Part shown: in pieces, positions 20,635-47,388 of the stretch
Layout of the letters: each line of letters begins with the position of its first letter
Numbering within the stretch: the stretch's first letter is position 1
From: Thainema sp.
GTDB lineage: Bacteria; Cyanobacteriota; Cyanobacteriia; Phormidesmidales; Phormidesmidaceae
Assembly: GCA_052168235.1 (NCBI GenBank)
Contig: JBQLZK010000009.1
Span: 66,827 to 130,826 of the forward strand
DNA length: 64,000 nt
Direction: 5' to 3'
The notes under the pieces: generated by a model
Told to the model about the DNA's origin: nothing
The model's database searches: none
What the model saw: only the letters and a program-made list of their open reading frames with translations
Position numbers and translations under genes: made by a program

Positions 20635-20684
20635 CTTCATTCGTGTCACTTAAATGGACGACTAAATAAGTGACACGAATGAAG
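20635..20684. repeat. Dispersed site 1: ATTCGTGT-N26-ACACGAAT (18-bp perfect arms in this copy)
   Basis: CTTCATTCGTGTCACTTA / TAAGTGACACGAATGAAG. Confidence 0.9.
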
Positions 20685-20841
20685 CCGCGAAAACCGGGAC
20701 CTGCCACTGCTCATCTGCAACGGTATGGCTCCATCAACACTTTCAGGAAACGTTATCCAACGTCCCAAACGGGACACCTAAAACAACAAGGATTTTAGCT
20801 ACACTGCGGGGATAACAGTCACGAGTCCATTGAGGATTGGC

Positions 20842-21260
20842 ATGAGCATTCGCCCATTTCATCTAGCATTTCCGGTCAACGATTTAGCGGCGACTCGCCA
20901 CTTCTATGAGACCGTTCTCGGCTGCACGATTGGCAGAACGGCTGACACCTGGATTGACTTTAATCTATTTGGGCATCAGGTCACAGCCCATTTAAGCCCA
21001 TCTCATGCGGCAACAATGCCGACCAATGATGTTGATGGCAAACCAGTTCCGGTACAGCATCGGGGCGTCATTTTAGAGATGCCACAATGACAGAGGTGGG
21101 CCAAGCAACTTCAACAGCACGGAATCGACTTCATTATTGAGCCTCATATTCGCTTTAAGGGAGAAGTCGGAGAACAAGCCACCATGTTTTTCTTGGATGT
21201 CAACGGACATGCACTGGAGTTCAAAGCCTTTCAACAGGATGAAGCTATCTTTGCGGTGAC
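20842..21260 (+). pseudogene. VOC/glyoxalase family gene with an in-frame TGA at 21088-21090
   Basis: PFHLAFPVNDL..WIDFNLFGHQ; the frame continues after the stop as [28 protein letters not shown]. Confidence 0.85.
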
Positions 21261-21297
21261 ATCACATCAACATCACATCAATAGGTCATTGATAGCG

Positions 21298-21711
21298 CTA
21301 GGGTTGGCCATACATCACCCCGTCCTTAAATCCCTGATATTCAGAATTCAGCCGCTCGTATTCCAGCGCTTGCTGTTCTGCCGTCCATTTTGCCCGTTCT
21401 TGCTGGAGCAGTGCATCTACCTCAGATTGGGTTAGGGTTGGCTCCTGCTGCTTGGGTTTCAATGCCTGAATAAGCAGAAGCAGGGCTACGAAAAAGCAGG
21501 TTGCTGCGATCGCAGCTCTCACCGCATCCCAGTTGATGCCAGATTGAGGCACGGTAAACACTCCGACCTGTTCATGGGGCTCCTCCACCAGTTCTGCTTG
21601 AACTGGCTGTGACTGTCGCACCAGCGGTTGCGCTGCAACAACTGGACTAGAGGTGGGTAACTGTCGCTGTTGGTCGTGGGGGAGATTGATGTTGATACTG
21701 ATTGGGTTCAT
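21298..21711 (-). CDS. Single-TM protein with a C-terminal coiled coil (FtsK operon)
   Basis: [16 protein letters not shown] helix; GAGG before ATG. Confidence 0.7.
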
Positions 21712-21776
21712 AATAACCTCGTCTCTTGATTGGAGATGAGGCAGGGGGACTTTTGCGGGTTCCCCTGCCTGCTAAT

Positions 21777-22151
21777 TCAGTGATTGACAGCGGCCAGCCA
21801 CATGCCAGCCAGAAGTGCCGGAATGAGCAAGAGAGCCGAATAGATGCTCATGCCAACTGCGATCGCACATCCGACCGGAATGATCGCAACCAGCAGTCCG
21901 TAGAACAACGTTCGACCGACGAACCGGAGCCGCTCGTCGAGTCGAACAATGGCCACGTATTCCCCCAAGTATCGGCTCATCGCTTCATCGCTGGCTTGGG
22001 CGAGGCAAAAGCCTTTGTAGTTCCGATCGAGCCGCTGTGAGTAGCTGGATTCAGCCACATCAAATTGAAGGTCGGCGAGGTGTTGGCCAATTGCGATCGC
22101 AAGAGTTGGATCGAACTCATCCGGGATGTGCTCGATGTCTTCAGGCTTCAT
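21777..22151 (-). CDS. Small membrane protein with two C-terminal TM helices (FtsK operon)
   Basis: Hydrophobic C-terminus; ATG 22151 with GAGG, overlapping the upstream stop. Confidence 0.65.
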   Translation of the reverse strand: MKPEDIEHIPDEFDPTLAIAIGQHLADLQFDVAESSYSQRLDRNYKGFCLAQASDEAMSRYLGEYVAIVRLDERLRFVGRTLFYGLLVAIIPVGCAIAVGMSIYSALLLIPALLAGMWLAAVNH

Positions 22152-22536
22152 CGGCCTCGTCCTCATGGGGTGTAATGTAGGCCGAGCGGATACTGCCCGC
22201 TTTGACTGCCATGCCATTGAAGAGCGATGCCATCATGTAGTTCGTTCGCTTGACGAGTTGCTGACCGCGCTCCTTGAATCGCTTCTCCATGCCATGCTCA
22301 GCCGCATCAAAGGCCGCATCGACGAGTTCAGTTCCGCCTTGAACCAGTTGGGCCGGTTCAAACTGTTCAACATCGACGTTCACATTGGGATTTTCAGTTT
22401 GAACGGCGGGTGGACGATAGGGTTTGGATTGTGTTTTGCCGCGCGCCACCTTGTCGCTTGATGCAGTACTGACTGAACGAGCTAAGCCTATTTGTGTTTC
22501 TGTGGTTTGTTCGGAATTAGTAGGTTTGTTGGTCAT
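22141..22536 (-). CDS. Hypothetical protein (FtsK operon)
   Basis: Tightly packed ORF on the operon strand. Confidence 0.6.
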   Translation of the reverse strand: MTNKPTNSEQTTETQIGLARSVSTASSDKVARGKTQSKPYRPPAVQTENPNVNVDVEQFEPAQLVQGGTELVDAAFDAAEHGMEKRFKERGQQLVKRTNYMMASLFNGMAVKAGSIRSAYITPHEDEADEA

Positions 22537-22548
22537 GACTGAAATCCC

Positions 22549-22971
22549 CTATGCAACAGTACTTTGAACATTAATCGTGTCCTGCTGAATGCGCCGTTGA
22601 TTTTGGCGCATGAGCATCTCTTCAATGCCAACATTGCAGTCTGCTTCTGAACCACCGGCTAGTGCAACAACCGCCCAAATTTCTGCATCAGTTTGGTGAT
22701 TGATGAACTCAATGATTTCGCTTTCAGGAATTTGATGTCTCCCTTTTGCATACTGCAAATGGCGATAAAGCGTGACGCAGTAAATAGTTTTCACTTCGGC
22801 TCGGGAGAGAGAAGCCCGATAGGCTCGCTCACCCCACAAGATTTTGGTGTCACGACTGATCTGATAGAGGGGTGCGCCCAACATATCTGCCACATCCTGT
22901 TTCGGAAATTGTGCGATCGCATCAACGATTTGAGGAACACGAGTGGTTGCTGGGCGTTTACGAATTGGCAT
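22549..22971 (-). CDS. Hypothetical protein, possibly HTH DNA-binding (FtsK operon)
   Basis: KQDVADMLGAPLYQISRD is HTH-like; ATG 22971 has GGAG upstream. Confidence 0.6.
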   Translation of the reverse strand: MPIRKRPATTRVPQIVDAIAQFPKQDVADMLGAPLYQISRDTKILWGERAYRASLSRAEVKTIYCVTLYRHLQYAKGRHQIPESEIIEFINHQTDAEIWAVVALAGGSEADCNVGIEEMLMRQNQRRIQQDTINVQSTVA

Positions 22972-23178
22972 GTCATGCAGTCTCCATAAGGGTTTTGCAA
23001 GATGGGGGTTAAAAGACCGTCGAGTTGCAGCATTTGCAAAACTTGTATGCATTAGCAGCACGTCAACCCCCGGTGTTGCAAGTTAGAACAATTCTGATAA
23101 AGCCTGTATCAGTTACAGGAGCTGAATTGCAGCACTGAATTTGCAACCTGCGGGTTGCAAGTGCAACCTTTTACGCCA

Positions 23179-27597: not shown

Positions 27598-29157
27598 ATG
27601 AGCCAAGCAACATCTGGGCGTCAGGATACCCGACGTTCCCATCCAGAACCGTTACCCGCCGATGCCAACGGTAAGCGGCTGTGTGAATTATTCAACTACC
27701 CCTGGCAGTTCATCACCGCCACCCTCGACTATCCCCACTACAAACCGAAGTGGGAAACCATCACCCGCTATCCCCTGCGCCCGCGTAACCTGTGGACACA
27801 GTGGCAAGACCCCAATCAGTTAATCGGTGTCCGATTTGGCCACACGACGACCTATGCTCTGATCGACATCGATGCCAAAAGCCAATACATCAATCCAACT
27901 GCGATCGCAGATCTCCAGTACGCCCTGGAAACCATCGGCATCTGCCGCGTTATGATCCTGCGCTCTAGCTGGAGCGGCGGCCTGCACCTCTACCTACCCT
28001 TACCCGAAGCCGTCAACACCTTCTCCCTGGCCTGCACGCTCAAACACAGCCTCACCGCCCAAGGATTTGAACTCGCCCCCGGTCAACTCGAACTCTTCCC
28101 CAACGTCAAAGCCTGGGCCAACCACTACCGAGGCGAATTCACCCAGTACAACGGCCACCGCCTCCCCCTGCAACCCGATAGCGGCTCCACCCTGCTCGAT
28201 GCTGAGCTTAACCCCCAACCACACGGCACCGATCTCAGTTTGTTCTTCCAGCAGTGGGACATTAGCGCCGATGGCCAAGATCTCACCCTGCTCAACAGCG
28301 CCCTCAACCAGGGCCGCAACCATCAGCGCAAACGCAATCGCCACCATAATCCCCACAGCCACATCGTCGCCACCTGGCAAGCCGACCTCGAAGACGAAAT
28401 CGCCCAAGGCTGGACGGACTATAGCCAAACCAACCACCTGCTCAAAACCATCGCCTGCTACGGCGTCGTTTTCCAGCAGCTCAGCGGCGATGACCTAATC
28501 GACTACATCCAGCACACCGCCACCCATAGCCCCGGCTACGACCAATGGTGCCGCCACCGCCACGAAATTCGAGCGCGAGCCAAAGCCTGGGCCAAAGCCG
28601 CCGAGAGCTACTATTGGCCTCTTGGCAGTAACCCCAAACGCAACACCGAGCATTCCCAACTAGACGGCACCAACAACATCGTCAACTTTAACCAAGAGCG
28701 AGCCACCGACGCACAGAACCGAATTCGAGCCGCTGTGGAACAACTGAGAGCCGATAACCAGCTACCGGACGGAATTACTGCTAGAGCAACTGCGATCGCA
28801 CCCGTTGCCAATACGAGTCGCAAAACGCTCTATAAACCTCGCAATTTAGCCCTGTGGCATCCACAGCATGAGGAGGAGAACCAACAGGTACAGTCTTCAA
28901 ATCCCGATACGAAGCAGCGATCGTGTGAACGACCAGACTCCACAAGCAATCCAGCCCATGATCCGACCCATCAGCCGAATTCCGCTCAACGGCTGAAACG
29001 ACCACACCGCAAGAAAGTACACACCCTCAAGAAAAATATGAAAGGTAGCCTACTGCCAGCAGCACAATCTAGGTTTCCGGGAAATTTGCGCATCAATCAA
29101 AGCCAAGGGCTACCAAAATTCCAGATACATCATCCACAAACAGATATCACAGACTGA
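27598..29157 (+). CDS. AEP (primase/prim-pol)-like replication protein candidate with a C-terminal HTH
   Basis: YALIDID (motif I), RSSWSGGLHLY (motif II), PGQLELFPN and RKTLY..LWHP motifs; AAGGAG RBS. Confidence 0.7.
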   Translation: MSQATSGRQDTRRSHPEPLPADANGKRLCELFNYPWQFITATLDYPHYKPKWETITRYPLRPRNLWTQWQDPNQLIGVRFGHTTTYALIDIDAKSQYINPTAIADLQYALETIGICRVMILRSSWSGGLHLYLPLPEAVNTFSLACTLKHSLTAQGFELAPGQLELFPNVKAWANHYRGEFTQYNGHRLPLQPDSGSTLLDAELNPQPHGTDLSLFFQQWDISADGQDLTLLNSALNQGRNHQRKRNRHHNPHSHIVATWQADLEDEIAQGWTDYSQTNHLLKTIACYGVVFQQLSGDDLIDYIQHTATHSPGYDQWCRHRHEIRARAKAWAKAAESYYWPLGSNPKRNTEHSQLDGTNNIVNFNQERATDAQNRIRAAVEQLRADNQLPDGITARATAIAPVANTSRKTLYKPRNLALWHPQHEEENQQVQSSNPDTKQRSCERPDSTSNPAHDPTHQPNSAQRLKRPHRKKVHTLKKNMKGSLLPAAQSRFPGNLRINQSQGLPKFQIHHPQTDITD

Positions 29158-30543
29158 AAAATTCACGAATTCCGGCCCAACCAACCGATATTCCGCTGAA
29201 TTACGAACCTGATCTAACAAAAAATCAGACACAAACGAGCTGTATTGCTTATCCTCTGGGGAATTACCATCATCGGCACATAATAAGCTTGGGGATAAGG
29301 CTTTCTCTTCTACATCCAGCTTTTCTGCCTTGATCTGATCCGTTTGATGTTTTTCCAGATCCTCTGGATGCCATAGATCCCGATGTCGATATAAACTTCC
29401 TCCACCAATTCCATAGCTTGTTAAGATCTTGAATCGTTCTGTTGTTTGGCTCGGTAACTGATTCTTTTCTAAAAGATCTGCGATCGCAGCCTGAATTTTT
29501 TTACGAGTATCTTCAGATTTCTGTTGATTCCAACTCGTTCCTTTAGGCTGTTCCGACAAAGTTTTATACTTTCCTTTTGAATAGCCATAGTGAAAGTAGT
29601 GACTTGATTCAATACATTTAGCCCACTCTTCTATCCGAGACTCTATCTCATGTTGATGCCTGCACCACTCTTTATACCCGGGCAAGGATGTAGCGATTTG
29701 AAGAATGTTTTCAATCAGTCTTTTTCCGTCTAGCGGTGGTTCATTCGTCAAAATATGATGAAAGATATACGATCTCATCGTAATCCGACCGAGCAGCCGA
29801 TTAGTTTGACCAAACCCAGTCCAACCCGCTTCAACTTCTGTGTTTAAATCGTCTAGAAATTTCTGAGCTCGTCCAGAGAGTTGATAATAATACTGCCTCT
29901 GAACTTGCCTTAAAATTGCAGCAAGTTGCTTTTGATCAACTTTGTTTTGAGTTTGGCAGTACTGCCATTGGCGCACAAAAAGAGACTGACAGCTCCAAAC
30001 TGGTTCAAAATCACTGTTCAGCAAGTATGAGCCAATTTGAAGCGGTAATCGGTGAGCGTTAAATAGACTGAGTGTTCCATCCCCAGGGTAAGTCCGTCGG
30101 TTTGGAAAAAGCTCCAGTTGACCGGGTGACAGTTTAAAGCCCGAATGCTCTAACAAATATGAAACAGCATTCGCAAGTTGCCACGATTTAATCGTCTTTT
30201 GCAGTGGGAAGTAAAGGTGTAAGCCATTACTGTAGCTTGATGTGCAGGTGATATGCGTTGAGATGCCTAAAGGTTCAAGCGCCTCTAGGATTTTTGCGAT
30301 CGCAAAGGGATCAGTGTTTGGATGGTACTGGCTGCCAATATCAATATCGAGCAAAAAATAGTTTGTAGTCGAGCCAGGACGGACACCAAAGAGTTGTTTC
30401 CCCTGCTGAATGAGGCGATCTGACAGAGGATATCGGGTTTCAGTGTGCCATTGGGGAGACTCTCCTGCTTCTGGATAGGGAGCATAGATAAAGTCATAAC
30501 GATTCGGGAAGAGAGACAAAAACTCGTCGTCCCACTCCTGCAC
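29110..30543 (-). CDS. Second AEP-like replication protein candidate, paralog of 27598..29157
   Basis: YFLLDID, SSYSNGLHLY, PGQLELFPN, HRLPLQ, WCRH.HEI and SLY..LWHP motifs are shared. Confidence 0.7.
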   Translation of the reverse strand: MQEWDDEFLSLFPNRYDFIYAPYPEAGESPQWHTETRYPLSDRLIQQGKQLFGVRPGSTTNYFLLDIDIGSQYHPNTDPFAIAKILEALEPLGISTHITCTSSYSNGLHLYFPLQKTIKSWQLANAVSYLLEHSGFKLSPGQLELFPNRRTYPGDGTLSLFNAHRLPLQIGSYLLNSDFEPVWSCQSLFVRQWQYCQTQNKVDQKQLAAILRQVQRQYYYQLSGRAQKFLDDLNTEVEAGWTGFGQTNRLLGRITMRSYIFHHILTNEPPLDGKRLIENILQIATSLPGYKEWCRHQHEIESRIEEWAKCIESSHYFHYGYSKGKYKTLSEQPKGTSWNQQKSEDTRKKIQAAIADLLEKNQLPSQTTERFKILTSYGIGGGSLYRHRDLWHPEDLEKHQTDQIKAEKLDVEEKALSPSLLCADDGNSPEDKQYSSFVSDFLLDQVRNSAEYRLVGPEFVNFSVCDICLWMMYLEFW

Positions 30544-31292: not shown

Positions 31293-32215
31293 GTCCCAAG
31301 GGTCTAGATTTTTTGTCCCAGGGGGTCTAGATTTTTTGTCCTGTGGTTCTAGAAAACGGTGTAATCATTGCGGCTCTGTCATCAAACGCAATACTAAACT
31401 TCAGCACAAAGGCTGTATTCTTCTCCAGACAAGCATTTCGACTTCTGTATTAACCTCTAACGATAAGCAAAAGGACAAGGGCCGACATGAAGAGGCATCT
31501 GCTTGTAACTTGCCATTACGAGAATTGATATCAGTCACTAGATTCTGTATGTTCCAGGGTTTTAGAGCAATTGTGTAATCGCTTAGCTTTGTCCCAGGGC
31601 TTTAGAGGAAGCTGTAATCAACGCTATCTCTGTAATCAAGTCGTATGTCCTAAGGCTCTAGAATCACCTGTAATCAAACTCCGAAATCTGTAATCAGGTT
31701 CTGTATGTCCCAGGGTTTTAGAGCAATTTGTAATCACCACGTATAGATCAGTAGAAAGCACGTCCCGAGGGTTTAGAGCAATTTGTAATCAACTTTGGCT
31801 AATTTGAACTTCAGAACGAAGGGCACTATAGCAAGCCATATTGATTAGGACGTTGGGAAACTCTGAGAACGTTCGAGCGGTTCAGCGTTAGATTCTGCAA
31901 ATGTCTCAACAAAAGAGCGACGCCGTAGTTACATCTCTTGATGCTCAACCAAGTTGTACTAGGTCCGTGTATAGGAACATTGTTTATTTTGTGTGAAATG
32001 CTTGCTGAGCAAGCATTTCACACAAAATAAACAATGGAGTTTTACCAAATCTCATATTACTACTAAGGTTCTACATGTCCCAACGGTCTAGAAGACTATG
32101 TAATCAAAGGTTCTGTAGCATAGGTTTATGTCCCGACGGTCTAGAGCGACTTGTAGTCAAGCTGTCGCCTGTAATCAGGTTATACGTCTTGGGGGGTCTA
32201 GAACACTTGTAATCA
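31293..32215 (+). repeat. Iteron-like direct repeat field, candidate oriV
   Basis: About 11 units GTCCC-N5-7-TAGA, mostly followed by N5-7-TGTAATCA (e.g. 31551, 31591, 31647, 31707, 31762, 32077, 32130, 32186), plus lone TGTAATCA boxes. Confidence 0.8.
31978..32036. repeat. 59-bp palindrome (29-bp perfect arms, 1-nt centre)
   Basis: CATTGTTTATTTTGTGTGAAATGCTTGCT-G-AGCAAGCATTTCACACAAAATAAACAATG. Confidence 0.95.
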
Positions 32216-32230
32216 AAATTAGTGTCGCCG

Positions 32231-33658
32231 CTACATGAACTCGAATGCCCGTTGTAAGGCGGCTTCAGTTTCAGCAGTAATTTGGCGCTCTCCTTTTTCG
32301 ATGAGCGAAATCAGAGATTGGCTCAAACCGGTGAAGGAAGCGAGTTTGCGCTGCGACCAACCGCGCTGATTACGCTGTTTTTTGACATCAGCACTAGTCA
32401 TTACAACTATGCTGGATTCACTCTCTGTATCCGTCTGCAAATCAGCATCAATCTGAGACGGTAGTGATAACGAAAACCAGTCATCCGGTGGACTAATCCA
32501 TACTTTCGCCGTTAATAGCTGTTCAAAAAAACCTTTAGGGCGATTTGCCGTTTCTCGACCCAACCCATAGGGCCGAATATCGTTAGGGTAGGTTTCGGCA
32601 TCAAATTGAATTCCCCAACCCTGATCTCTCAGTACAAACAAATCCTCATCCCAAGCATTGGCAATTCTGGAGCGAATCTTTCGATTTGAGATCGCTTGGT
32701 TCAGTCTCTCGCTACTATAAGCCACTTCCATCAACGTTTTTACATCGTAGGGATAAAGCTGATTCTGCTGAGATTTAAACAGGAGCCAGATCATTAAGCG
32801 GGCAGCGCCCTCACGATGTTGCCAGATACTCATCACGCTCTCTAGCAGAGCCTTAGAGAGATTGCTGTATTGAGGCGAATCAGCTGATCCACCGTCCCCA
32901 GACTCGCTCAAAAAATGCTTTGCCCACGATCCAGGCTTGATAACAAAAGTCATTCCAGCAATATCCTTTGTATCATCCAGTAAGTTCTGCTGATAGTGAT
33001 ATCGCGTTTCAATTAAATGCCAAAGTCGCCCTTCGGCAACCGTAAATCCTTTTTGCTTGGGCGTACTTTTCCAAGTAATAAACGTGGTAATTTTGCAGGG
33101 CTGCTCAACTAAGTCTTTGATGAGCTCTAGCTTCTGCTGTCGATTTAAGTCCGTGCGTTTGTAAAGCCCCAGATACTTCTCAAGCTGTCTGTCATCAACA
33201 ACAATTTCATGCTCCCACGGATCTTCGACCCGAGCAGCATAAGCGGCATATACCAAGTGCATACAAGCGGCTCGGATATCAAACGTATCAATTACGGCCA
33301 AAGCCGCAGCACTCGCCAATCCAACGGGATGATCGCTTTCGGCCTCATCTGTTACCCAAAAATGGATCGCGCCCTCTCCCGTGTCAAAATCACGCACATA
33401 GGACAGACGGCCATCCGGATCGGTCTGCCAAGGTAAATGCTTGCGGCGAGTTAGGATATTGCTTGCTTCCAGAAGCGGTAAGGAAGACGGGACAGGAGTC
33501 GTGCTGCTGTCAGAAAACAAATCTGGATGCGTCATGCGGCGCTCATCAACTAAGTTAGATGCCGCTTTTACTTTGCCCCGTTTTTTCTGAGGTCGCTCAT
33601 CCCGATCTGAGCTATGAGTTGGATGATTAGCGTCCTGCTGAGATCTAGAAGAAGCCAT
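32231..33658 (-). CDS. Large protein with a C-terminal XRE HTH; candidate iteron-binding initiator
   Basis: RNQRGWSQRKLASFTGLSQSLISLIEKGER HTH; its stop abuts the repeat field. The initiator role is inference. Confidence 0.65.
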   Translation of the reverse strand: MASSRSQQDANHPTHSSDRDERPQKKRGKVKAASNLVDERRMTHPDLFSDSSTTPVPSSLPLLEASNILTRRKHLPWQTDPDGRLSYVRDFDTGEGAIHFWVTDEAESDHPVGLASAAALAVIDTFDIRAACMHLVYAAYAARVEDPWEHEIVVDDRQLEKYLGLYKRTDLNRQQKLELIKDLVEQPCKITTFITWKSTPKQKGFTVAEGRLWHLIETRYHYQQNLLDDTKDIAGMTFVIKPGSWAKHFLSESGDGGSADSPQYSNLSKALLESVMSIWQHREGAARLMIWLLFKSQQNQLYPYDVKTLMEVAYSSERLNQAISNRKIRSRIANAWDEDLFVLRDQGWGIQFDAETYPNDIRPYGLGRETANRPKGFFEQLLTAKVWISPPDDWFSLSLPSQIDADLQTDTESESSIVVMTSADVKKQRNQRGWSQRKLASFTGLSQSLISLIEKGERQITAETEAALQRAFEFM

Positions 33659-33797: not shown

Positions 33798-34862
33798 CTA
33801 ATTATCTGTCTCAGTGTCATCTTCTAGCTCTTCAGCTGCGGTGCTGAGTTCAGTCTCAAGCTGTTCAATCGTGGGTAAATTATTTTGAAAATTGGGTGGC
33901 AGTTGAGACTGTAGTTCATAGGTTGAAACGCCAATTGGCTGTTGGCTTCCTTGCAGCGCATATTCCACAGTTGTTTTATCCTTGGCTTTGCAGAGAATAA
34001 TGCCAATCGTGGGATCATCTCGTTCACTACGCAGTAAATTGTCTACTGCCGCGACATAAAAGCTCATCTGTCCCGAATGCTGTGGCTCAAATTCACCCAT
34101 TTTCAAATCGATGACCACATAGCAATGAAGATGGACATGGTAGAACAGGAGATCAAGCCGATATTCTTTGCCGCTAACCACTAATGGATATTGACTCCCC
34201 AAAAAGGCAAACCCTAGCCCTAGCTCCATCAAGAAATCGCGGATATGCTTAACCAGAGCATGTTCTAGCTCCCGCTCCTGAGCCGCCTCGGTGAGGGTCA
34301 AAAAATCAAAGTGATACGGATCCTTCACGAGCTGCTGAGCCAGGTCAGATTGAGGGGCAGGTAAAGCCCGCTCAAAATTCGTCACTGCTCCACCTTGCCG
34401 CTGGTACAGATTACTCTCAATCTGCATTACCAAAATATTGCGACTCCACCCGTTAGTAATCGTTCGCTGTACGTACCAGAGTCGTTCATCCTGATCCTTC
34501 ACCAGCTCCAACAACCGAATATTGTGGCCCCACGGAATTTGGCCAACAAGCTGTTGGACAATTTGCTCATCAGGATACGCCTCGGCAAACGCGCGCATAT
34601 TTTTGAGATTGGAGCGAGAAAACCCCTTCATGTCCGGGAATTCTTTTTTGAGATCTGCCGCTAGCCGATCAATTACCTTTGCACCCCAGCCTTCCGATTC
34701 TTGCTTGGCCAGAATATCCTGCCCAATTTGCCAATAGAGATAGATCAGCTCTTGGTTTACGGCCAACGCAGCTCTCACCTGCGCTGAACGAATACGCTGC
34801 TTTAAGCCATTGAGAAAATCGTTATAGTTGCGATCGGAAAAAAGAGAAGACTGTCGAGGCAT
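33798..34862 (-). CDS. DUF1016/YhcG PD-(D/E)XK nuclease family protein
   Basis: VNQELIYLYWQIG, GFSRSNL, KDPY.FDFL and DLLFYH..YVVIDLK motifs. Confidence 0.92.
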   Translation of the reverse strand: MPRQSSLFSDRNYNDFLNGLKQRIRSAQVRAALAVNQELIYLYWQIGQDILAKQESEGWGAKVIDRLAADLKKEFPDMKGFSRSNLKNMRAFAEAYPDEQIVQQLVGQIPWGHNIRLLELVKDQDERLWYVQRTITNGWSRNILVMQIESNLYQRQGGAVTNFERALPAPQSDLAQQLVKDPYHFDFLTLTEAAQERELEHALVKHIRDFLMELGLGFAFLGSQYPLVVSGKEYRLDLLFYHVHLHCYVVIDLKMGEFEPQHSGQMSFYVAAVDNLLRSERDDPTIGIILCKAKDKTTVEYALQGSQQPIGVSTYELQSQLPPNFQNNLPTIEQLETELSTAAEELEDDTETDN

Positions 34863-35405: not shown

Positions 35406-36161
35406 ATGAGTAAAGTCATTACGCTATTTAATCAGTCAGGAGGGGTTGCCAAGACCACACTGACAATGAATCTGGGGTATCACCTCGCCAAGAAGCGACA
35501 TCGAGTGCTATTGGTTGACATGGATCCCCAAGCATCATTAACCACGTTTCTCGGACTCGATCCCGTCGAGCTATCGCAAACGATCTATGAATCGGTGGTG
35601 GGTGAGGAAAGCCTGCCGATTCATCATAAGATCCACGGTTGTGATGTGGTTCCATCCAACATTAACTTGAGTGCCGCTGAGCTAGAGCTGGTTTCTGCGC
35701 TGATGCGTGAAATGCGGCTCAAGGATGCGCTAGCTCCAGTGCTGGATCAGTATGATTTTATTCTGATCGACTGTCCTCCGAGCCTTGGCATTTTGAGCGT
35801 GATTAGCTTGGCCGCAGCAACTCATGTGCTGGTACCAATTCAGACTCAGTTCAAGGCATTTCAAGGAACTGATTTGCTGCTGAGCACTATTGCCGGACTG
35901 CGATCGCGCGTTAACCGCTCACTTGCGATCGCAGGTTTTGTCCCCACGATGTACGACAGCCGCACCGCTCAAGAAAGCCGAACGCTGAAAGCCATTCAAG
36001 ATCAGCTATCTGTCTTAGGGACTGTCTTTGATCCCATTCCAAAATCGATTGCTTTTGCGGATGCTTCAGAAGCTCGTCTGCCGTTGGCAGTTTATAACGC
36101 CAAGCATCCTGCCGTTCGCGTACTGAAGAAAATTGCCACTGGCATGGAGAAACTGACGTGA
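35406..36161 (+). CDS. parA: ParA family partition ATPase
   Basis: NQSGGVAKTT, VDMDPQASLT and ILIDCPPSLG motifs. Confidence 0.95.
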   Translation: MSKVITLFNQSGGVAKTTLTMNLGYHLAKKRHRVLLVDMDPQASLTTFLGLDPVELSQTIYESVVGEESLPIHHKIHGCDVVPSNINLSAAELELVSALMREMRLKDALAPVLDQYDFILIDCPPSLGILSVISLAAATHVLVPIQTQFKAFQGTDLLLSTIAGLRSRVNRSLAIAGFVPTMYDSRTAQESRTLKAIQDQLSVLGTVFDPIPKSIAFADASEARLPLAVYNAKHPAVRVLKKIATGMEKLT

Positions 36162-37102
36162 ATACCCGCAAAAAAGATCAGCCTTATACCAGTCAACTGA
36201 GAGGCGTCGCAGCACTCTTGGGAACGCAGCCAATCGACTCAGCCACAGAGGCCGCCGCCGAGTTTGTAGAGATTAGCCAAATCACACTGCCCAATTCTCA
36301 ACCACGTCGATACTTCGATCCCCAAAAGCTACAAGAACTCTCAGCCTCTATTAAAGAACATGGTGTTTTAGAACCATTACTGACTCGTTCATTGAATGGT
36401 CAGTACGAACTAGTCGCTGGAGAGCGCCGTTACAGAGCCGCCAAGCTTGCTGGGCTAACACAAGTTCCGGTTGTCGTAAAACAGCTTACCGATCAGGAAG
36501 CGCTCCAGCTGGCCCTAATCGAAAACCTTCAGCGTGAGGATCTCAATCCGGTAGAAGAAACACAGGGCATTCTCGATCTGCTGGCCGTCCGCCTCGACAC
36601 CACTGTAGAAGAAGTCATTTCACTGCTCCATCGGATGCAGAATGAAGCAAAAGGCAAAGTTACCCAAAACGTTTTGGGTAACTCACAAGGTCAAGCTATC
36701 CAAAACGTTTTCGACTCACTTGGCTTGATTGGTTGGGAATCCTTCGCGACCAGTCGCCTCCCCTTACTCAAACTGCCAACTGATGTGCTGGATGCACTGC
36801 AAGCAGGAAAAATTGCTTACACCAAGGCAAGTGCGATCGCGCGGATCAAGGATGCCGATCAGCGGCACAAATTATTGACAGAAGCCATTAAGCAACAGTA
36901 TTCACTATCCCAAATCAAAGCCCAAATTAAACACATTCAGGCACCAGCCAAACACATCACACCTTCAGCCGATTTGGGTCATCGTGTGGATCAAGTCTAC
37001 AAAGCTGTAAAGCGCTCCAAGGTCTGGAATAACCCTCAAAAGCGAAAGCGACTTGAGAAACTACTGACGTCGATTGAAGATTTACTAGAATCTGGACAGT
37101 AA
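36158..37102 (+). CDS. parB: ParB/Spo0J family partition protein
   Basis: QPRRYF, VAGERRYRAA and ENLQREDLNP motifs; GTGA overlap with parA. Confidence 0.95.
   Translation: MNTRKKDQPYTSQLRGVAALLGTQPIDSATEAAAEFVEISQITLPNSQPRRYFDPQKLQELSASIKEHGVLEPLLTRSLNGQYELVAGERRYRAAKLAGLTQVPVVVKQLTDQEALQLALIENLQREDLNPVEETQGILDLLAVRLDTTVEEVISLLHRMQNEAKGKVTQNVLGNSQGQAIQNVFDSLGLIGWESFATSRLPLLKLPTDVLDALQAGKIAYTKASAIARIKDADQRHKLLTEAIKQQYSLSQIKAQIKHIQAPAKHITPSADLGHRVDQVYKAVKRSKVWNNPQKRKRLEKLLTSIEDLLESGQ
36658..36683. promoter_or_regulatory. parS candidate inside parB
   Basis: AGTTACCCAAAACGTTTTGGGTAACT, perfect 26-bp palindrome. Confidence 0.7.
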
Positions 37103-37245: not shown

Positions 37246-38052
37246 ATGCACCTCACTACACTTCAAGGTCAACCCGTCAGTCGGCTCGGTTTAGCCAGCC
37301 AGTATATCGAAGAGGCCAATTGCGTTCCCACTGCTTTTGATGCCGGAATCAACTATTTCTTTTCCTACAGCACACCGACTGGTATCTTTCTCCAAGAACT
37401 GCGATCGCTAGTTGCAGGCCATCGTGAACAGCTAATCGTCGCAACGGGCAGCGAACATCGTGATACCAAGCCACTTCAGCATCGACTTGATGAAATCCGT
37501 CAGCAGTTAAATACAGATATTGTGGACGTGTTCTTTCTAGAATATATTTCTCCCGATGAAGACATAAATCGAGTCAAAACTGCAATCGAGCAACTGTACA
37601 CATGGCAACGACAAGGATCAATTCGCTATGTTGGTATTACCACTCATAATCGGTCAATTGCCTTAAACTTTGTGCAGACGCAGCAATGTGATGTGCTGAT
37701 GCACCGCTACAATATGGCGCATCGACAAGTTGAAGCAACTGTTTTGCCTGTTGCTCAAGCTGCTGAAATTCCCGTCATTGCATTTACCTGCACTCGCTGG
37801 AGCACTCTTTTGCAAGGCCATCCAGATTGGCCAGACTCACCACCATCCGCATCCGATTGTTATCGCTATACGCTTCAACAACCGTCGGTTCACTGCGCGC
37901 TTACCAGCCCGAAATCGCTATCCCAGCTTCAAGAAAATCTCAGCGTTTTAACGGCTCCACCTCTACCTCCGGCTGAGGTCAAACGCTGGCAACAATACGG
38001 AGATCTGATCTATGGCAGTGGACAAGACTCATTTGAAACACGCTGGCCATAG
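37246..38052 (+). CDS. Aldo/keto reductase family protein
   Basis: VSRLGL, AGINYFF, LNTDIVDVFF and GSIRYVGITTH motifs. Confidence 0.8.
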   Translation: MHLTTLQGQPVSRLGLASQYIEEANCVPTAFDAGINYFFSYSTPTGIFLQELRSLVAGHREQLIVATGSEHRDTKPLQHRLDEIRQQLNTDIVDVFFLEYISPDEDINRVKTAIEQLYTWQRQGSIRYVGITTHNRSIALNFVQTQQCDVLMHRYNMAHRQVEATVLPVAQAAEIPVIAFTCTRWSTLLQGHPDWPDSPPSASDCYRYTLQQPSVHCALTSPKSLSQLQENLSVLTAPPLPPAEVKRWQQYGDLIYGSGQDSFETRWP

Positions 38053-38475
38053 TTAACAAGATTTCAATTTAAAAATCTAGATCTAAGTAGGTACGGGCTG
38101 AAACCTGCATCTGTGTAACTGAATGCAAACAAGAGGTAAACCGATTGATGGCTATAGCCTTCGAGTTGTTTGCAAATCTCAACATGGCGTAGTTTTTCTA
38201 CCCCAACCTACTTACTAGGCAGTAATTCATCTCGTAACAACCAAATCTTTTGGCGCACGTGCAAGAGCTACAGCAACACGGCTACATTTTGGGAGCACAA
38301 GAATTACCCAGAAAAAACGGTCTGCCAGCATTCAGTTCCAGGTCAATCCCGAGAAGATCAGCTGTCACGAATGAGCCATGCATATCACCTCGTGCACCTT
38401 TGTTTCTAGACCAAAAAATATTGACCACTTGTCTTGAGGCTTTGAATTAACTGGTATATGGCAAAAGAAGATAAG

Positions 38476-38523
38476 TTCATTCGTGTTAATTTGTAGGATT
38501 CTCGCAAAAGTAACACGAATGAA
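38476..38523. repeat. Dispersed site 2: ATTCGTGT-N26-ACACGAAT
   Basis: TTCATTCGTGTTA / TAACACGAATGAA. Confidence 0.9.
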
Positions 38524-38560
38524 TACTATTCAGCTTCATCTTACTGTCGGCACTTTCACA

Positions 38561-38974
38561 TTAGTCGCGGATGTTGCCACGTAAGGATTTGAGCTGACTC
38601 CTTTTGGTTTTACTATCAAGGCGTTTTTGCTTTGCGCGGCGAGAGGGTTTGGTGGGTTTGCGCTTTTTGGGGGTGACAGTCACGCTTTTGATCAGGTCTT
38701 TGAGTCGATTGAGGGCGTCTTCTTTATTTTGGTCTTGGGTGCGGTGCTGCTGAGCTTTGATGACAATGATGCCGTCTTTGGTGATGCGGCTGTCATTGAG
38801 AGTGAGCAGACGTTCTTTGTAGAGAGGAGACAGGGAAGAGGCATTGATATCAAAACGCAAATGAATGGCGGTGGCCACCTTATTCACGTTTTGACCATCG
38901 GCACCTTGCGATCGCACTGCGCTGATCTCAATTTCGTTGAGCGGGATGGCTGTATGTTTAGTAATTTGCAGCAC
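38561..38974 (-). CDS. arfB: ArfB/YaeJ-type peptidyl-tRNA hydrolase with GGQ changed to DGQ
   Basis: VRSQGADGQNVNKVATA, HRTQDQNKEDAL.RL and a basic tail KRKPTKPS..KRLDSK. Confidence 0.85.
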   Translation of the reverse strand: MLQITKHTAIPLNEIEISAVRSQGADGQNVNKVATAIHLRFDINASSLSPLYKERLLTLNDSRITKDGIIVIKAQQHRTQDQNKEDALNRLKDLIKSVTVTPKKRKPTKPSRRAKQKRLDSKTKRSQLKSLRGNIRD

Positions 38975-39994: not shown

Positions 39995-40246
39995 ATGATT
40001 CAAATCCAGCTCAACTTACCCGAAAGTGCCTTCTCCGCGCTGCGTAGCACTCCTGATGAATTCGGCCAAGAACTGCTAATCGCCGCTGTTGTGAAATGGT
40101 ATGAAGTGGGCATGATCTCTCAATCGAAAGCCGCTGAAATTGCAGGCATCAGCCGCCAAGACTTTCTCCAGGCATGCGATCGCTTTAAAGTTTCACCCGT
40201 CCAAACCACTCCAGAAGAACTGACTGAGGAGGTTAATCGCGGTTAG
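39995..40246 (+). CDS. UPF0175 family putative antitoxin
   Basis: VKWYEVGMISQSKAAEIAGISRQDFL. Confidence 0.85.
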   Translation: MIQIQLNLPESAFSALRSTPDEFGQELLIAAVVKWYEVGMISQSKAAEIAGISRQDFLQACDRFKVSPVQTTPEELTEEVNRG

Positions 40247-40315
40247 ACGCTAGGTAGCTCAGTGCTTTGCTGCTCATGAGCTTAGCCTAGATGAACCTGC
40301 GTGAAGAAAAAACAG

Positions 40316-40361
40316 TTATTCGTGTTGTTTTAAAGAATTCTATTTTAGGTGACACGAATAA
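40316..40361. repeat. Dispersed site 3: ATTCGTGT-N26-ACACGAAT
   Basis: TTATTCGTGT / ACACGAATAA. Confidence 0.9.
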
Positions 40362-40578
40362 TGGGTGTATTTTTAGAGAAGGTGCGATCGCATTACGTCA
40401 AGCCAATTATCTTTCACCTAGAGTGGGAATAGGAAGATCTTGGTCGAGGTTCATCAGGTTGTGCGTGATCTAGCCGGAGCTGTACTTGCCGATGAACACG
40501 TTGGTCACCGTTTCATCATTGAACACGGCTTAATTCGAGCGATGGAAGTTTGTCCGCTGCCATCACCGACCTCGGTTC

Positions 40579-41484
40579 CTAACCACTTCTTCCAGTGATG
40601 CTATCTTCCACATAATGGTGGATTGTCTGAATAAACTCGCGCAGCACAGGCGATGGATTTTGAGAGCGCCATACAGCCAAAGTCTCAATCTCAAACGTCG
40701 GTTGTATATCCTTGTAGACTACCCCAGTCCGCTGTAGATTCTGCATTGAGGCGGGCACGAGTGCAACCCCGATTTTTCCAGCAACTAGACCTAATGCGGT
40801 TTGGAGCCACCGGGCTTGTTGCACGACTGTTGGGATAAACCCATTGTCCTGGCAAAGGTTCAGGACTTGATGATAAAACCCTTGTACTAGGTGAGACGGG
40901 GGTAGAATAAATGGTTCTTGGCTGAGCACCTTGAGGGGAATTTTGGGGTGAGATCGGAGTGGATGCTCTTGATGGATGGCAACAATTAGTGGTTCTTTGA
41001 GGACAGAGAAAAAACTCAAATCGCCATTGCTGGGGATTGGGGCATTGAGGAAACTACAATCAATCGTGCGATCGCTCAGCCGTTGAATTTGCGTTTGAGA
41101 ATCCAGTTCGCATAAGCTCAACTGAACCTGGGGAAATCGAGTTTGAAAGGCGTTCAGGATAGTTGGCAGAACACTTTGAGTTACGGTGCTATTAAACCCA
41201 ATCGCTAAGTGTCCGACTTCTCCTCGATTGGCTTGTTGAGCCATCAGAGTTGCCTGTTCAACTTGAGCCAAAACCAACTGCGCCTGCTTTAAGAAGGCTT
41301 GTCCTGCATGGGTCAACTGAAGGGGACGCTTATCCCGTTCAAGCAACTGCACGCCCAGTTCAGTTTCCAGCGCCCGAATTTGCTGGCTCAGAGGTGGCTG
41401 AGCCATGTGTAACCGCTCAGCCGCTCGACTGAAATTTAACTCTTCTGCAACCGTGACGAAGTATCGCAGGTGCCGTAGTTCCAT
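40579..41484 (-). CDS. LysR family transcriptional regulator
   Basis: MELRHLRYF..FSRAAERLHMAQPPLSQQIR. Confidence 0.95.
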   Translation of the reverse strand: MELRHLRYFVTVAEELNFSRAAERLHMAQPPLSQQIRALETELGVQLLERDKRPLQLTHAGQAFLKQAQLVLAQVEQATLMAQQANRGEVGHLAIGFNSTVTQSVLPTILNAFQTRFPQVQLSLCELDSQTQIQRLSDRTIDCSFLNAPIPSNGDLSFFSVLKEPLIVAIHQEHPLRSHPKIPLKVLSQEPFILPPSHLVQGFYHQVLNLCQDNGFIPTVVQQARWLQTALGLVAGKIGVALVPASMQNLQRTGVVYKDIQPTFEIETLAVWRSQNPSPVLREFIQTIHHYVEDSITGRSG

Positions 41485-41619: not shown

Positions 41620-42888
41620 ATGGTTATCTCATCATCGGTAGGGGCGATCTCCACCCCCCAATTACTAAGCCAGAAAGGATATTACGGCGAGTTTGGCGGA
41701 CGCTTTACGCCTGAGATTTTGCATGAAACATTGGAGGCAGTCACCGCTGCCTATGAAGCTGCCAGACAGGATCAGGCGTTTTGGAATGAGTTTGTCGCCT
41801 TGTTATCTAACTATTCTGGTCGTCCGACATCCCTCACCTATGCCGAAGGTTTAACGCGTTACCTAGGGGGTGCCAAAATTTTCATCAAGCGAGAAGACTT
41901 AAACCATACCGGTTCACACAAATTGAATAACGGGCTGGGGCAAATGCTGCTGGCTAAACGGATGGGCAAGACGCGAGTGATCGCAGAAACAGGCGCGGGT
42001 CAACATGGCGTCGCAACGGCCACGCTTGCCGCCAAGTTCGGACTCCGCTGCACCATTTACATGGGGGCGATCGATGTTGACCGGCAATATCCGAATGTGT
42101 TCTGGATGCGAAAGTTGGGGGCAGAGGTCGTCCCTGTTTCATCTGGAACTCAAACGCTCAAAGATGCGATGAATGAAGCGTTGCGGGATTGGTCTACTCA
42201 CATGGACACCACGCACTACGTCATCGGAACCGCCTGTGGGCCGCATCCGTTTCCAGAAATGGTCGCTTGGTTTCAATCGGTGATTGGACTGGAAGCGCGA
42301 TCGCAAATTCTGCAACAGGCTGAAACCTTACCGACAGCCGTTTATGCCTGTGTCGGAGGAGGCTCCAATGCGATCGGGATTTTTAGTGGATTTCTGGATG
42401 ATGCAGGGGTGCAGTTAGTGGGCGTAGAAGCAGGGGGATTGGGCATCCATACACCGCATCATGCCTCGCGCTTAGCAGCATCTGATGCATCTGTTGGAAT
42501 TGCTCAGGGGTACAAAACCTATTTTCTGCAAAACCAGGATGGACAAATGCAGGATACCCATTCTGTCGCAGCAGGGCTTGACTACATTGGTGTTTCACCT
42601 CTTCTGGCTCACTTGACTCAAACGGATCGCATTAACGTTAAGGCCGCAACCGATGCAGAAGTGCTTGAAGCGTGTCAGTTGTGCATGAGTCAAGAAGGAT
42701 TAATTCCTGCTCTGGAATCGGCTCATGCGTTTGTTCAAGCCTTCAAAGATGCACCCCACTACACGTCCAATGACTGCATTGTGATTAATCAATCCGGACG
42801 TGGTGATAAAGATATTTTCACAATCGCCAATGCTTTTGGTGATACTGAGTGGAAATCATTTTTAAGCAATCAAGTATCCTCATTCTAA
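41620..42888 (+). CDS. trpB: Tryptophan synthase beta chain
   Basis: KREDLNHTGSHKLNN, AETGAGQHG, CVGGGSNA and PALESAHA motifs. Confidence 0.95.
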   Translation: MVISSSVGAISTPQLLSQKGYYGEFGGRFTPEILHETLEAVTAAYEAARQDQAFWNEFVALLSNYSGRPTSLTYAEGLTRYLGGAKIFIKREDLNHTGSHKLNNGLGQMLLAKRMGKTRVIAETGAGQHGVATATLAAKFGLRCTIYMGAIDVDRQYPNVFWMRKLGAEVVPVSSGTQTLKDAMNEALRDWSTHMDTTHYVIGTACGPHPFPEMVAWFQSVIGLEARSQILQQAETLPTAVYACVGGGSNAIGIFSGFLDDAGVQLVGVEAGGLGIHTPHHASRLAASDASVGIAQGYKTYFLQNQDGQMQDTHSVAAGLDYIGVSPLLAHLTQTDRINVKAATDAEVLEACQLCMSQEGLIPALESAHAFVQAFKDAPHYTSNDCIVINQSGRGDKDIFTIANAFGDTEWKSFLSNQVSSF

Positions 42889-42913: not shown

Positions 42914-43888
<975 letters not shown>

Positions 43889-43919
43889 TCAATATCTTGA
43901 AGACTAAGTACATAAGAAC

Positions 43920-45805: not shown

Positions 45806-45828
45806 TTTTCTTATAGTGATTGTTTCCC

Positions 45829-46314
45829 TCAAGCTAGGGTGATGAGTAGCGCAACCAGGCTCAAAAGCCCGAAGACGGCTCTGGCGACGTGGGAATATTC
45901 CCAGCGATCGCGCAACTCCGTCCAAACGGGGGTGTCCGTTTCGCTGGAAGAGCGGGTGCCAAAGGTGAAAAAACCAGAGCTAAAGCGATCGAGGCTTTCC
46001 CCTTCGACCCAAAACTGATTCACCGGATGGGTGATTAGCCAGTACACCGCCTGCATACCGATGAGTCCGATCAGCGCCAGGAGCGTCAGCCAAAACTCGG
46101 CGCTACCGGCTGGCGTTAGCCATAGCAGGGTTGCCGTCAAGATAATGCTGACTGGCTCGCTGATGCCCCCATCGTAAAGCCGGGATAGTAGATAGTTTGG
46201 GTAGCATAGTAGGTTTCCTGATTGAGCCTCATTTTTCCGGGTAATTCCAGCGCGTGGGCTAGAGCCAGCGAGCTCAACCAGCAATGTCGTCGTAATTTGC
46301 AGTAGGTTAAACAC
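45829..46314 (-). pseudogene. DUF1772-like membrane protein gene with two apparent compensating frameshifts
   Basis: The family-like segment LALAHALELPGKMRL..QTIYYPGFT is in a different frame from the N- and C-termini (THPVNQFW, LRDRWEYSHVAR). Confidence 0.6.
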
Positions 46315-46471
46315 GATTGATTTCTCTCTACATCATCCATATGTTGGCTTCTGTGGCCAATCGGCAGGTAAATCCTCAACATCCTCCTGCCAACCATAGG
46401 ACATATTCATGGAGTAGTCGTTTGAAAAAGGGGGGGATCGACAAGGGAACGAAAATTTTCAACCCAATTCT

Positions 46472-46663
46472 CTAGGTAGATGAGAATTTGTCTTGAATCA
46501 GCTTTTTGTAAAAAAGTTGATCTGATTCACCTCCCTGTTCAGCTAACGGTCTGGCCCGTTCTGGGGAGCGAGTTACCGCGACGACCTCATGTCCTTGAGC
46601 CAGCAACTGGGTCATCAGCGGACAACCGATCGCCCCTGTCGCTCCTGCAACAAAAATTTTCAT
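46472..46663 (-). pseudogene. Truncated NAD-dependent epimerase/dehydratase
   Basis: MKIFVAGATGAIG Rossmann start; similarity is lost after about 45 aa. Confidence 0.8.
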
Positions 46664-46701
46664 CTATTGAATCTTAAAGACAGTAAAACATTCACCCATA
46701 A

Positions 46702-46728
46702 GACGAGATAGCCTCATCGGTTGTGACA
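46702..46728 (-). promoter_or_regulatory. ECF41-type promoter TGTCACA-N16-CGTC
   Basis: Exact motif and 16-nt spacing upstream of an epimerase gene, a typical ECF41 target class. Confidence 0.65.
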
Positions 46729-46827
46729 AGTCGCCAAAATTCGGGTGCTGTTTCCTTGGCCGGAAGGATAGGCAGCAACTACTTCATCCGTTACGCTGAG
46801 AGTGTTTTGGAGCTATCACGAATTTAG

Positions 46828-47304
46828 TTGCAATCGCACCGTGCTGATCTCGATTTTGGCAATGGCGAACGGGTCACGCTGCGTGACATCGGTGAATGGT
46901 CGCTGCCGCAGACTGACCTGGTTGTCCTGAGTGCCTGTGAAACGGCTGTGAGTGAAGAACTGGGCAACGGGGAAGAGATCCTCGGCTTTGGCTACCAGAT
47001 GCAGCGGATTGGCGTGGAAGCTGCGATCTCATCGCTGTGGCAAGTGAGCGATGGGGGAACGCAAGTGCTGATGAATACGCTGTATGCCTCATTGCAAGAT
47101 GGTCACAGTACCGCAGCAGCTTTACAACAAGCACAGATGGCGTTAATCGCAGGCGAATGTTACGGGGTAGAAAACTGCGATCTCAGTTTTCCAAGAGGTA
47201 TTGCGGTAATTGGAATTGAGCCAAATCAGCCATCATCTGTCAGCACCAACCTGAGCCATCCCTACTACTGGGCACCGTTCATTCTGATTGGCAATGGCTT
47301 ATAA
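46828..47304 (+). pseudogene. C-terminal fragment of a CHAT-domain protein
   Basis: LVVLSACETA, SSLWQVSD and HPYYWAPFILIGN motifs; the N-terminal part is absent. Confidence 0.85.
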
Positions 47305-47344
47305 CATTAGTGTTGATGGCCCCCCCAAATCCTGACCAGATGTC

Positions 47345-47388
47345 TATTCGTGTTGTTTCTGCCACATTTTACAGGAGTAACACGAATA
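47345..47388. repeat. Dispersed site 4: ATTCGTGT-N26-ACACGAAT
   Basis: TATTCGTGTT / AACACGAATA. Confidence 0.9.

Follow-up and report, generated by a model that had tools for sequence, protein, structure and literature searches.

A hairpin-forming palindrome with genome-specific arm spacing at module borders of a Thainema plasmid and in other cyanobacteria

The window analysed here is a 64,000-nt stretch of DNA from the cyanobacterium Thainema sp. (contig JBQLZK010000009.1, positions 66,827 to 130,826), and the element under study is a short palindrome that occurs in it four times (sites 1 to 4; coordinates in Table 1). The window is plasmid DNA because it contains ParA/ParB genes, an FtsK-like gene and iteron-like repeats. 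All four sites are intergenic, and according to Pfam each divides functionally unrelated genes. Site 1 lies between an XRE-type helix-turn-helix (HTH) gene and a VOC gene fragment, site 2 between an aldo-keto reductase (AKR) gene with an open reading frame (ORF) on the plus strand and a convergent arfB-like gene with an RF-1 domain, site 3 between a UPF0175 antitoxin-family gene and a LysR gene, and site 4 between a CHAT gene fragment and a convergent gene with an SNase domain. The truncated genes beside the sites are the N-terminal half of the VOC gene, the C-terminal third of the CHAT gene and a SnoaL-like 3′ remnant. The first-pass annotation of this DNA had already placed all copies between unrelated modules and several of them next to truncated genes, and the profile searches bear this out.

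Each site has the form ATTCGTGT-N26-ACACGAAT. This exact pattern is found four times in the window, always with an interior of 26 nt, and gave no match over 100 dinucleotide-preserving shuffles of the window, so the copies first reported are real. The 8-mer of the arm occurs eight times on the two strands of the window, in every case as the arm of a site (shuffles: mean 1.91, maximum 6), and permitting 3 mismatches added just one match, at 42586, which is at chance level. A covariance model built from the relatives described below and run with filters off returned the same four sites and no others. A weak match of the model at 31980-32034 is part of another, longer palindrome of the iteron region, with perfect 26-bp arms, a 3-nt centre and a sequence unrelated to the hairpin family; it is possibly a feature of the origin.

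The arms had been thought to enclose a mostly unpaired middle, which folding contradicts. Each site forms a single hairpin whose stem continues inward and outward from the arms to 13-22 bp around a loop of roughly 8-14 nt. The folding energies of the plus strand are -34.8, -20.7, -14.7 and -18.9 kcal/mol for sites 1 to 4 (z -10.3 to -3.7), and the minus strand folds similarly. Intrinsic terminators were rejected, in agreement with the first-pass annotation, because the A+T-rich stem has T on its 5′ side and A on its 3′ side and no T tail follows; sites 2 and 3 were not flagged as terminators. A consensus scan flagged no canonical promoter at the sites, and no tRNA was found there. Rfam gave 0 matches in the window at the gathering score, with sub-threshold matches to generic microRNA precursors at sites 2 and 3, and the repeats of the two CRISPR arrays of the window are unrelated in sequence to the hairpin. 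The highly iterated palindrome 1 (HIP1) octamer GCGATCGC is present in 53 copies in the window, some of them near sites 1, 3 and 4; a right-flank motif common to sites 3 and 4 (19/21 nt) has a HIP1-like core and, given this abundance, carries no weight.

Relatives of the sites were collected in one scan of 185,579 species-representative genomes. Fixed in the pattern were the two 8-mers and the five flanking positions common to the four copies, while the interior was left free at 16-36 nt. The scan yielded 33 loci (numbered with the prefix L), of which about ten would be expected by chance in an arithmetic estimate with uniform base composition. Two duplicates were removed (L007, identical to L006, and L018, identical to L017), and four loci whose records are not cyanobacterial (interiors 19, 35, 19 and 21 nt) were treated as unrelated palindromes. 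The element is thus present in 27 loci of 18 other assemblies. The titles of these assemblies mostly name Phormidesmis, Elainellaceae, Synechococcales or a 'cyanobacterium'; two read 'uncultured bacterium', and the DNA of one of these (L022) is up to 94% identical to that of the window. At least 2-4 copies with exact arms occur per assembly.

The consensus of 36 aligned non-redundant copies is TT-ATTCGTGTTACTTTTT ... AAAAGTAACACGAAT-AA. Each conserved arm comprises about 15 nt, namely the 8 invariant bases plus an inner TACTTTT or AAAAGTA, and the whole element about 50 nt; the copies have 24-44% G+C, with T-rich flanks on the 5′ side and A-rich flanks on the 3′ side. Left-arm columns that the search pattern had left free are still conserved and complementary to the fixed bases of the right arm. 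Standard pairs fill 91.3% of the 612 cells of a 17-bp stem, compared with 37-49% if the partners are shifted by 1-3 columns; not one of 500 shuffles attained the covariation score, and the outermost conserved pair alternates between T-A (23 copies) and C-G (6 copies). Beyond the conserved arms pairing goes on: at positions 1 to 4 outward, 30, 26, 21 and 20 of the 35 copies are paired, after which the level drops to background. Diverged copies were sought within 4 kb around the exact matches: the covariance model added two copies with one arm mismatch each (L009:6775-6828 and L017:3285-3339), and with filters off it found no further copy in 95,381 bases except one weak match at L016:4544.

The four sites are therefore members of an apparently undescribed family of palindromic elements in thin filamentous cyanobacteria. 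Rfam, Pfam, NCBIfam, PHROGs, PDB and the titles and abstract openings of the papers listed in the literature searches hold no description of the element or of the protein family A introduced below. A literature search for the string ATTCGTGTTAC gave unrelated matches only, as judged by title; titles and abstract openings on small dispersed repeats in cyanobacteria mention no such element, and none of the matches listed for cyanobacterial plasmid hairpins or cassettes is relevant.

The fixed spacing noted at first pass holds within this genome, where the interior lengths are 26, 26, 26 and 26 nt. Across genomes the interior ranges from 24 to 29 nt (the 15-nt arms themselves are 10-14 nt apart), so that 26 nt is not universal. 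The spacing is nearly uniform in each assembly, as illustrated by CAZGDE01 (24, 24, 24 and 24 nt), JADEXO01 (25, 25 and 25 nt) and CALDSK01 (28, 27, 27 and 27 nt). The within-genome sum of squares is 2.42, compared with 19.6 after permutation, and none of 20,000 permutations was as low; leaving out the window copies did not change this outcome. The two copies found by the model alone in L009 and L017 also match the spacing of their genomes (26 and 27 nt). The central sequences of copies from the same genome are unrelated (positional identity 0-0.58). Neutral decay would give insertions and deletions, and the spacing is constant even though substitutions in the centre are saturated; the likely cause is selection exerted by a factor able to gauge how far apart the arms are.

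In 10 of 35 copies the hairpin is followed after 2-9 nt by the start codon of a gene for an uncharacterised protein of about 117 aa, here termed family A (loci L013, L015, L016, L017, L019, L021, L024, L026, L032 and L033). Such a fixed position in front of one gene family is operator-like. Hairpins stand on both sides of the family A gene in L016 and L017, and L016 belongs to the cultured cf. Phormidesmis sp. LEGE 11477. Hexamers resembling a -10 element lie in the loop of four of the ten units, and these four amount to no more than two independent orthologous pairs. The A-linked copy is orthologous between genomes, and its spacing shifts together with that of the other copies in each genome (7 genomes; r = 0.85; exact permutation test, 96 of 5040).

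Family A has 54 close homologues, the few named ones being 'hypothetical protein' entries of Synechococcus sp. PCC 7335 or of cyanobacteria of the Phormidesmis type. An exhaustive profile search, clustered at 50%, gave 88 representatives, whereas no member was found in 72,556 PLSDB records. Beyond coiled-coil-type noise (E up to 5) no weak matches were obtained, and DUF6788, a label carried by 19% of one Atlas cluster, was not confirmed by Pfam. The predicted model (pLDDT 88) consists of a helix, three strands, a short helix and a long C-terminal helix, and a conserved histidine pair is absent from the invariant residues. A scan of 30 distant or longer members showed fusions to a Dam-type DNA adenine methyltransferase domain in two, to an RHH domain in one and to GAF in one. 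In the proteins P0117 and P0137 a distant family A sequence forms the N-terminal domain, and the Dam domain joined to it is of phage type. The fusions to Dam and RHH hint, if modestly, at a role connected with DNA.

A second gene family of about 650 aa, family B, lies upstream of the hairpin-A unit in L013, L016, L017 and L019. It is encoded on 74 cyanobacterial plasmids in PLSDB under the label 'hypothetical protein', with weak profile hints of a phage primase in the N-terminal part and of the slr1353 family in the C-terminal part. The window has two convergent, slightly overlapping family B genes, both shorter than these relatives and without an adjoining hairpin. The hairpin model gave no match on three complete Leptolyngbya plasmid loci (137,430 bases) or on a Kovacikia locus, despite relatives of family B or of a further family C in these loci.

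The neighbours of the element elsewhere were surveyed through 149 ORFs of at least 90 aa in 23 loci, of which 142 were scanned with Pfam and seven assigned by BLAST clustering (ParA, ParB, RecD2). The contexts comprise plasmid maintenance (ParAB), defence (BREX, Cap4, NACHT) and chromosomal genes (Era/PFK, nitrile hydratase, histidine kinases). The genes on the two sides of a site may be convergent, in tandem or divergent.

Our preferred reading, which we hold tentatively and at somewhat less than even chances, is that the sites are cis elements read by a genome-specific factor, with family A as the best candidate, and that the copies at module borders act as operators, roadblocks or insulators. 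The element itself is a dyad-symmetric, hairpin-forming palindrome of apparently low copy number, made of the arms plus about 4 outer pairs around a sequence-free centre. Each genome's own sequence-specific factor would read both arms at a set distance, on the stem-loop or on duplex DNA. The family A gene may be autoregulated through the adjoining copy, and the remaining copies, the four window sites included, would be binding sites at the borders of accessory modules. Junctions and gene remnants would accumulate beside the sites because these travel with the modules and are short shared palindromes. The data can be explained without dedicated crossover at the site, which is the less likely alternative.

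Several observations weigh against this reading. The window has no family A gene (profile search in six frames, best E = 0.46), so that the proposed partner is unseen for the very copies described here. Family A has no match in Pfam, NCBIfam or PHROG and no recognised DNA- or RNA-binding fold, and its best match among PDB folds has E = 0.2. Its length is 116-117 aa at every spacing from 25 to 28 nt and therefore offers no obvious ruler. The linkage between element and family A could be simple co-inheritance, and the uniform spacing per genome could result from a recent spread of copies therein. Three of the four window copies are flanked by convergent genes, a setting in which a promoter is not to be expected. 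The 100% identity of the arms in other genomes was imposed by the exact pattern, and the copy counts are lower bounds in which diverged copies are under-counted. Finally, G.T pairs outnumber A.C oppositions by 34 to 21 over all copies and by 9 to 5 on the sense strand of family A, a bias too weak to tell an element acting in RNA from one acting in DNA.

The first-pass annotation had instead taken the sites for crossover points at which accessory modules are shuffled, by analogy with pdif modules. On this reading a recombinase encoded elsewhere would act on the site, folded or as duplex, so that a module between two sites could be excised, inserted or exchanged, much as with pdif or integron attC sites. 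Part of this stands, as the sites are a real family at module borders and beside gene remnants. By sequence comparison there is a rearrangement at site 1 relative to the close relative L022. Site 1 is embedded in a unit of about 93 bp (20621-20713) common to both. In L022 this unit stands directly after a block matching 19585-19067 of the window and 264 nt upstream of an intact gene of 292 aa; in the window that gene is reduced to its last 78 codons and has no hairpin, and the unit lies 1.6 kb away beside an internal duplication. A third repeat pair of 51 bp (18622-18672 and 19318-19368) was also seen in this region. The far-side neighbours differ between homologues of a gene end plus hairpin in L016, L017 and L001, and one-side neighbours differ for homologous hairpin-gene units (L016:1574-1765 versus L017:5540-5738; L013 versus L015). 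Two copies bracket parAB in L006, RecD2 in L009, family A in L016 and L017, an ORF in L017 and the segment between sites 2 and 3 in the window. Homologues of the genes round sites 2 to 4 are spread over different plasmids, and two adjacent genes are common only with Kovacikia. A uniform site length per genome is, moreover, also a trait of attC sites, whose length is homogeneous within a host in sedentary chromosomal integrons.

Other evidence speaks against crossover. The module of family B, hairpin and family A is unbroken through the hairpin in five genomes (L013, L015, L016, L017 and L019, at 68-78% DNA identity), and this is the conserved synteny across the site that the first-pass annotation had set against its own proposal. 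All locatable breakpoints fall 2-36 nt outside the hairpin and none inside, and the hairpins retain their own complementary outer flanks, so that the copies are not hybrids of left and right halves; together this argues against crossover inside the site. Homology blocks end near hairpin edges in 18 of 152 cases where 1.95 are expected, an excess that is real yet trivial in part, given that a conserved gene adjoins the hairpin and the hairpin is itself an island of conservation. Site 3 does mark a junction: the SnoaL-like homology starts 36 nt to the right of the site and covers the 3′ part only, with lysR synteny continuing beyond. The 5′ half is absent from the whole window, and because it is missing from the other end, the segment between sites 2 and 3 was not inserted as a unit into a SnoaL-like gene. 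A side observation concerns L011, where a 189-bp repeat occurs twice (1943-2131 and 3804-3992), one copy ending 9 nt from a hairpin and the second having no hairpin detected next to it; each copy matches the position of the other in the orthologous L012 (81% identity).

No recombinase family recurs beside the element. The 142 scanned ORFs include two short Phage_integrase ORFs (L024:36-587 and L026:3347-3940), both in hairpin-A loci and one of them at a distance of 62 nt from its hairpin; transposases and resolvases are absent from the set. As first reported for the window, none of the 67 scanned ORFs out of 79 (the other 12 encode 51-71 aa) is an integrase, transposase or resolvase, Cas1 being the sole integrase-type protein. 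Tyrosine recombinases need identical overlap regions for strand exchange, and where such identity is required the unrelated centres would block it. Taken together, we regard recombination sites as an unlikely explanation.

The element might also act in RNA, as a transcribed hairpin that controls translation of family A, possibly with the family A protein bound to it, and that elsewhere serves as a 3′-end stabiliser or as a factor-dependent termination or processing signal. The stable folds fit such a role, as does the family A start codon, which the hairpin abuts so closely that no room is left for a free ribosome-binding region. Four hairpin-A units fold better by >4 kcal/mol on the sense strand, and not one does so on the antisense strand; in most settings the 3′ end of one or both neighbouring genes points towards the hairpin, and the four G.T pairs of site 3 arise on the sense strand of its upstream gene. 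Against this, the bias of wobble pairs over mismatches given above is weak, the better-folding strand is antisense to both neighbours in L023 and L030, at least six copies lie between divergent genes, and the hairpin has neither a U tail nor a match in Rfam. We consider an RNA-level element doubtful.

A non-autonomous mobile palindrome, resembling repetitive extragenic palindromic (REP) sequences and their hairpin-forming doublets (REPINs) or a minimal MITE (a miniature transposable element with terminal inverted repeats), with a transposase elsewhere and family A in the part of a REP-associated tyrosine transposase (RAYT), is very doubtful: dispersed intergenic palindromes of genome-specific form, the 93-bp unit in two contexts among close relatives and the RAYT-like flanking of family A in L016 and L017 agree with it, but the copies are few (2-4 exact ones per assembly, a lower bound), the flanks are inverted complements and not direct target duplications, no Y1 or other transposase was found in the 142 ORFs or the window, the centres within a genome are unrelated, unlike copy-paste of a master element, and orthologous copies are stable between genomes.

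These three accounts and the preferred reading of the sites as binding sites for a genome-specific factor are not fully exclusive. A bolder reading would be a new module-boundary system in which the geometry of the hairpins co-evolves, genome by genome, with a host 'ruler' factor, family A or an unseen partner, and in which this factor assembles, insulates or relocates the accessory and defence modules of plasmids and chromosomes. We consider it a long shot.

The remaining features of the window are included in Table 1. Eight iteron-like direct repeats of about 30 nt stand beside a gene for a 475-aa protein with a C-terminal HTH_3 domain, whose relatives on 44 cyanobacterial plasmid records in PLSDB are labelled XRE-family, HTH regulator or hypothetical; repeats and gene are a probable replication origin plus initiator. 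A full-length YhcG/DUF1016 gene adjoins this probable replication gene, what is left of a YhcG-type PDDEXK nuclease gene is found close to site 4, and a YhcG homologue stands between parAB and a hairpin in L009. UPF0175-type antitoxin genes are normally paired with a toxin gene; the ORFs following the gene at site 3 (40291-40473 and 40440-40598) had no Pfam match, and the solitary antitoxin gene counts as a further sign of a junction there. The CRISPR arrays have two related repeat variants of 35-36 nt, ORFs called within them are spurious, and a type III-B Cmr set with Cmr2/Cas10, Cmr3 and RAMPs follows (CRISPR-Cmr genes 3945-16618). The internal DNA repeats of the gene for a 2881-aa giant protein dominate the repeat-finder output.

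Table 1. Hairpin sites, gene remnants and other features of the window (coordinates in nt)
Feature	Coordinates	Strand	Remarks
CRISPR array	1..~2620
cas2	3945..4238	-	between the CRISPR arrays
cas4-cas1 fusion	4258..5919	-	between the CRISPR arrays
CRISPR array	6182..~8280
Cmr2/Cas10	8659..11916		after the arrays
Truncated-gene region	18661..18943	-	94% identity to L022:3931-4214; holds ORF 18688-18924
Internal duplicate	18932..19071	+	matches 20708-20792 (76%) and 20908-20957 (84%), right of the site 1 unit
XRE-type HTH gene	20346..20558
Hairpin site 1	20633..20686	.	core 20639-20680, interior 26 nt, stem to about 22 bp
VOC/glyoxalase N-terminal fragment	20830..21090	+	profile 3-58 of 121; 149 nt right of site 1
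Family B gene	27598..29157	+	519 aa
Family B gene	29110..30543	-	477 aa
Iteron-like repeats	31338..32159
Palindrome in iteron region	31980..32037		unrelated to the hairpin family
HTH_3 gene	32231..33658	-	475 aa
YhcG/DUF1016 gene	33798..34862	-	full length
ParA/ParB genes	35406..37102
AKR gene	37246..38052		left of site 2
Hairpin site 2	38473..38526	.	core 38479-38520
arfB-like gene	38561..38974	-	RF-1 domain
UPF0175 antitoxin-family gene	39995..40246	+	71 nt left of site 3; no toxin gene after
Hairpin site 3	40312..40365	.	core 40318-40359; 4 G.T wobble stem pairs on the + strand
SnoaL-like 3′ remnant	40395..40580	+	homology to intact Kovacikia plasmid ORF L034:2799-3182
LysR gene	40579..41484	-
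CHAT-domain C-terminal fragment	46828..47304	+	profile 173-289 of 289; 41 nt left of site 4
Hairpin site 4	47340..47393	.	core 47346-47387
SNase-domain gene	47440..48303	-
YhcG-type PDDEXK nuclease fragment	48346..48579	-	77 aa
Giant protein gene	50419..59064	-	2881 aa; LVIVD repeats (20) and domains of the cadherin-like, Big_9 and He_PIG types

Should the sites be read by a host factor, they belong to an uncharacterised protein-nucleic acid recognition system in poorly studied cyanobacteria, placed where modules for plasmid maintenance, toxin-antitoxin pairs and defence adjoin other DNA. As the signature of a molecular ruler, a constant genome-specific spacing round a free centre is unusual and can be tested directly, and the element provides a handle on the function of the orphan family A. 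The cultured strain LEGE 11477, with its hairpin-A-hairpin arrangement, makes experiments feasible. If the sites are crossover points instead, they would represent a new cassette system beyond the integron and Xer paradigms.

Among known systems, attC sites share with the element a conserved stem foot, a variable top, a position at gene borders and the bracketing of genes by sites. The element differs in being shorter (about 50 nt), in its core, in the lack of a co-oriented array and in lying also between convergent or divergent genes. In the 36-copy consensus the stem foot is ATTCGTGT / ACACGAAT without a GTT-type core at the 3′ end, and the stems are continuous, with no conserved bulge, extrahelical bases or unpaired central spacer; no IntI was found beside the element in the scanned ORFs. 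The analogy to the pdif sites and Xer recombination of Acinetobacter drawn at first pass is apt for the inverted arms, the fixed spacing, the variable centre, the position at plasmid module borders and the absence of an adjoining recombinase gene. It fails in geometry, since dif and pdif have two arms of about 11 bp round a short central region of 6-8 bp, whereas here 8-nt arms lie 24-29 nt apart, or 15-nt arms 10-14 nt apart, with a self-complementary interior.

REP/RAYT systems, REPINs included, are likewise built on short extragenic palindromes that form hairpins and have a genome-specific form, with an associated gene flanked by copies and other copies dispersed. RAYT genes are described as flanked by REPs (PMC5581495). 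Here the flanked gene is family A, which lacks HUH/Y1 features (no RAYT-type Y1 transposase appeared in any Pfam scan), the copies counted, a lower bound, are a handful and not hundreds, the centres are unrelated and the stems A+T-rich. A module-boundary system of the kind outlined above would parallel attC/IntI and REP/RAYT in function with unrelated parts.

The dispersed operators of plasmid global regulators and of autoregulated small DNA-binding proteins, those of the KorB type for instance, resemble the element in having a palindrome directly before the regulator's own gene and further intergenic copies on the replicon. Unlike these, the element has a long spacer that varies between genomes, pairing that runs into non-conserved flanks, many copies at places where a promoter is not expected and a candidate protein without a recognised DNA-binding fold. 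In the lambda N/nut (boxB) system and the coat-protein operators of phages, a small protein binds a hairpin just upstream of its own gene. The element shares with them the small-protein gene just after the hairpin and the few further copies on the replicon, whereas their hairpins, which are bound as RNA, are much smaller and have fixed loops.

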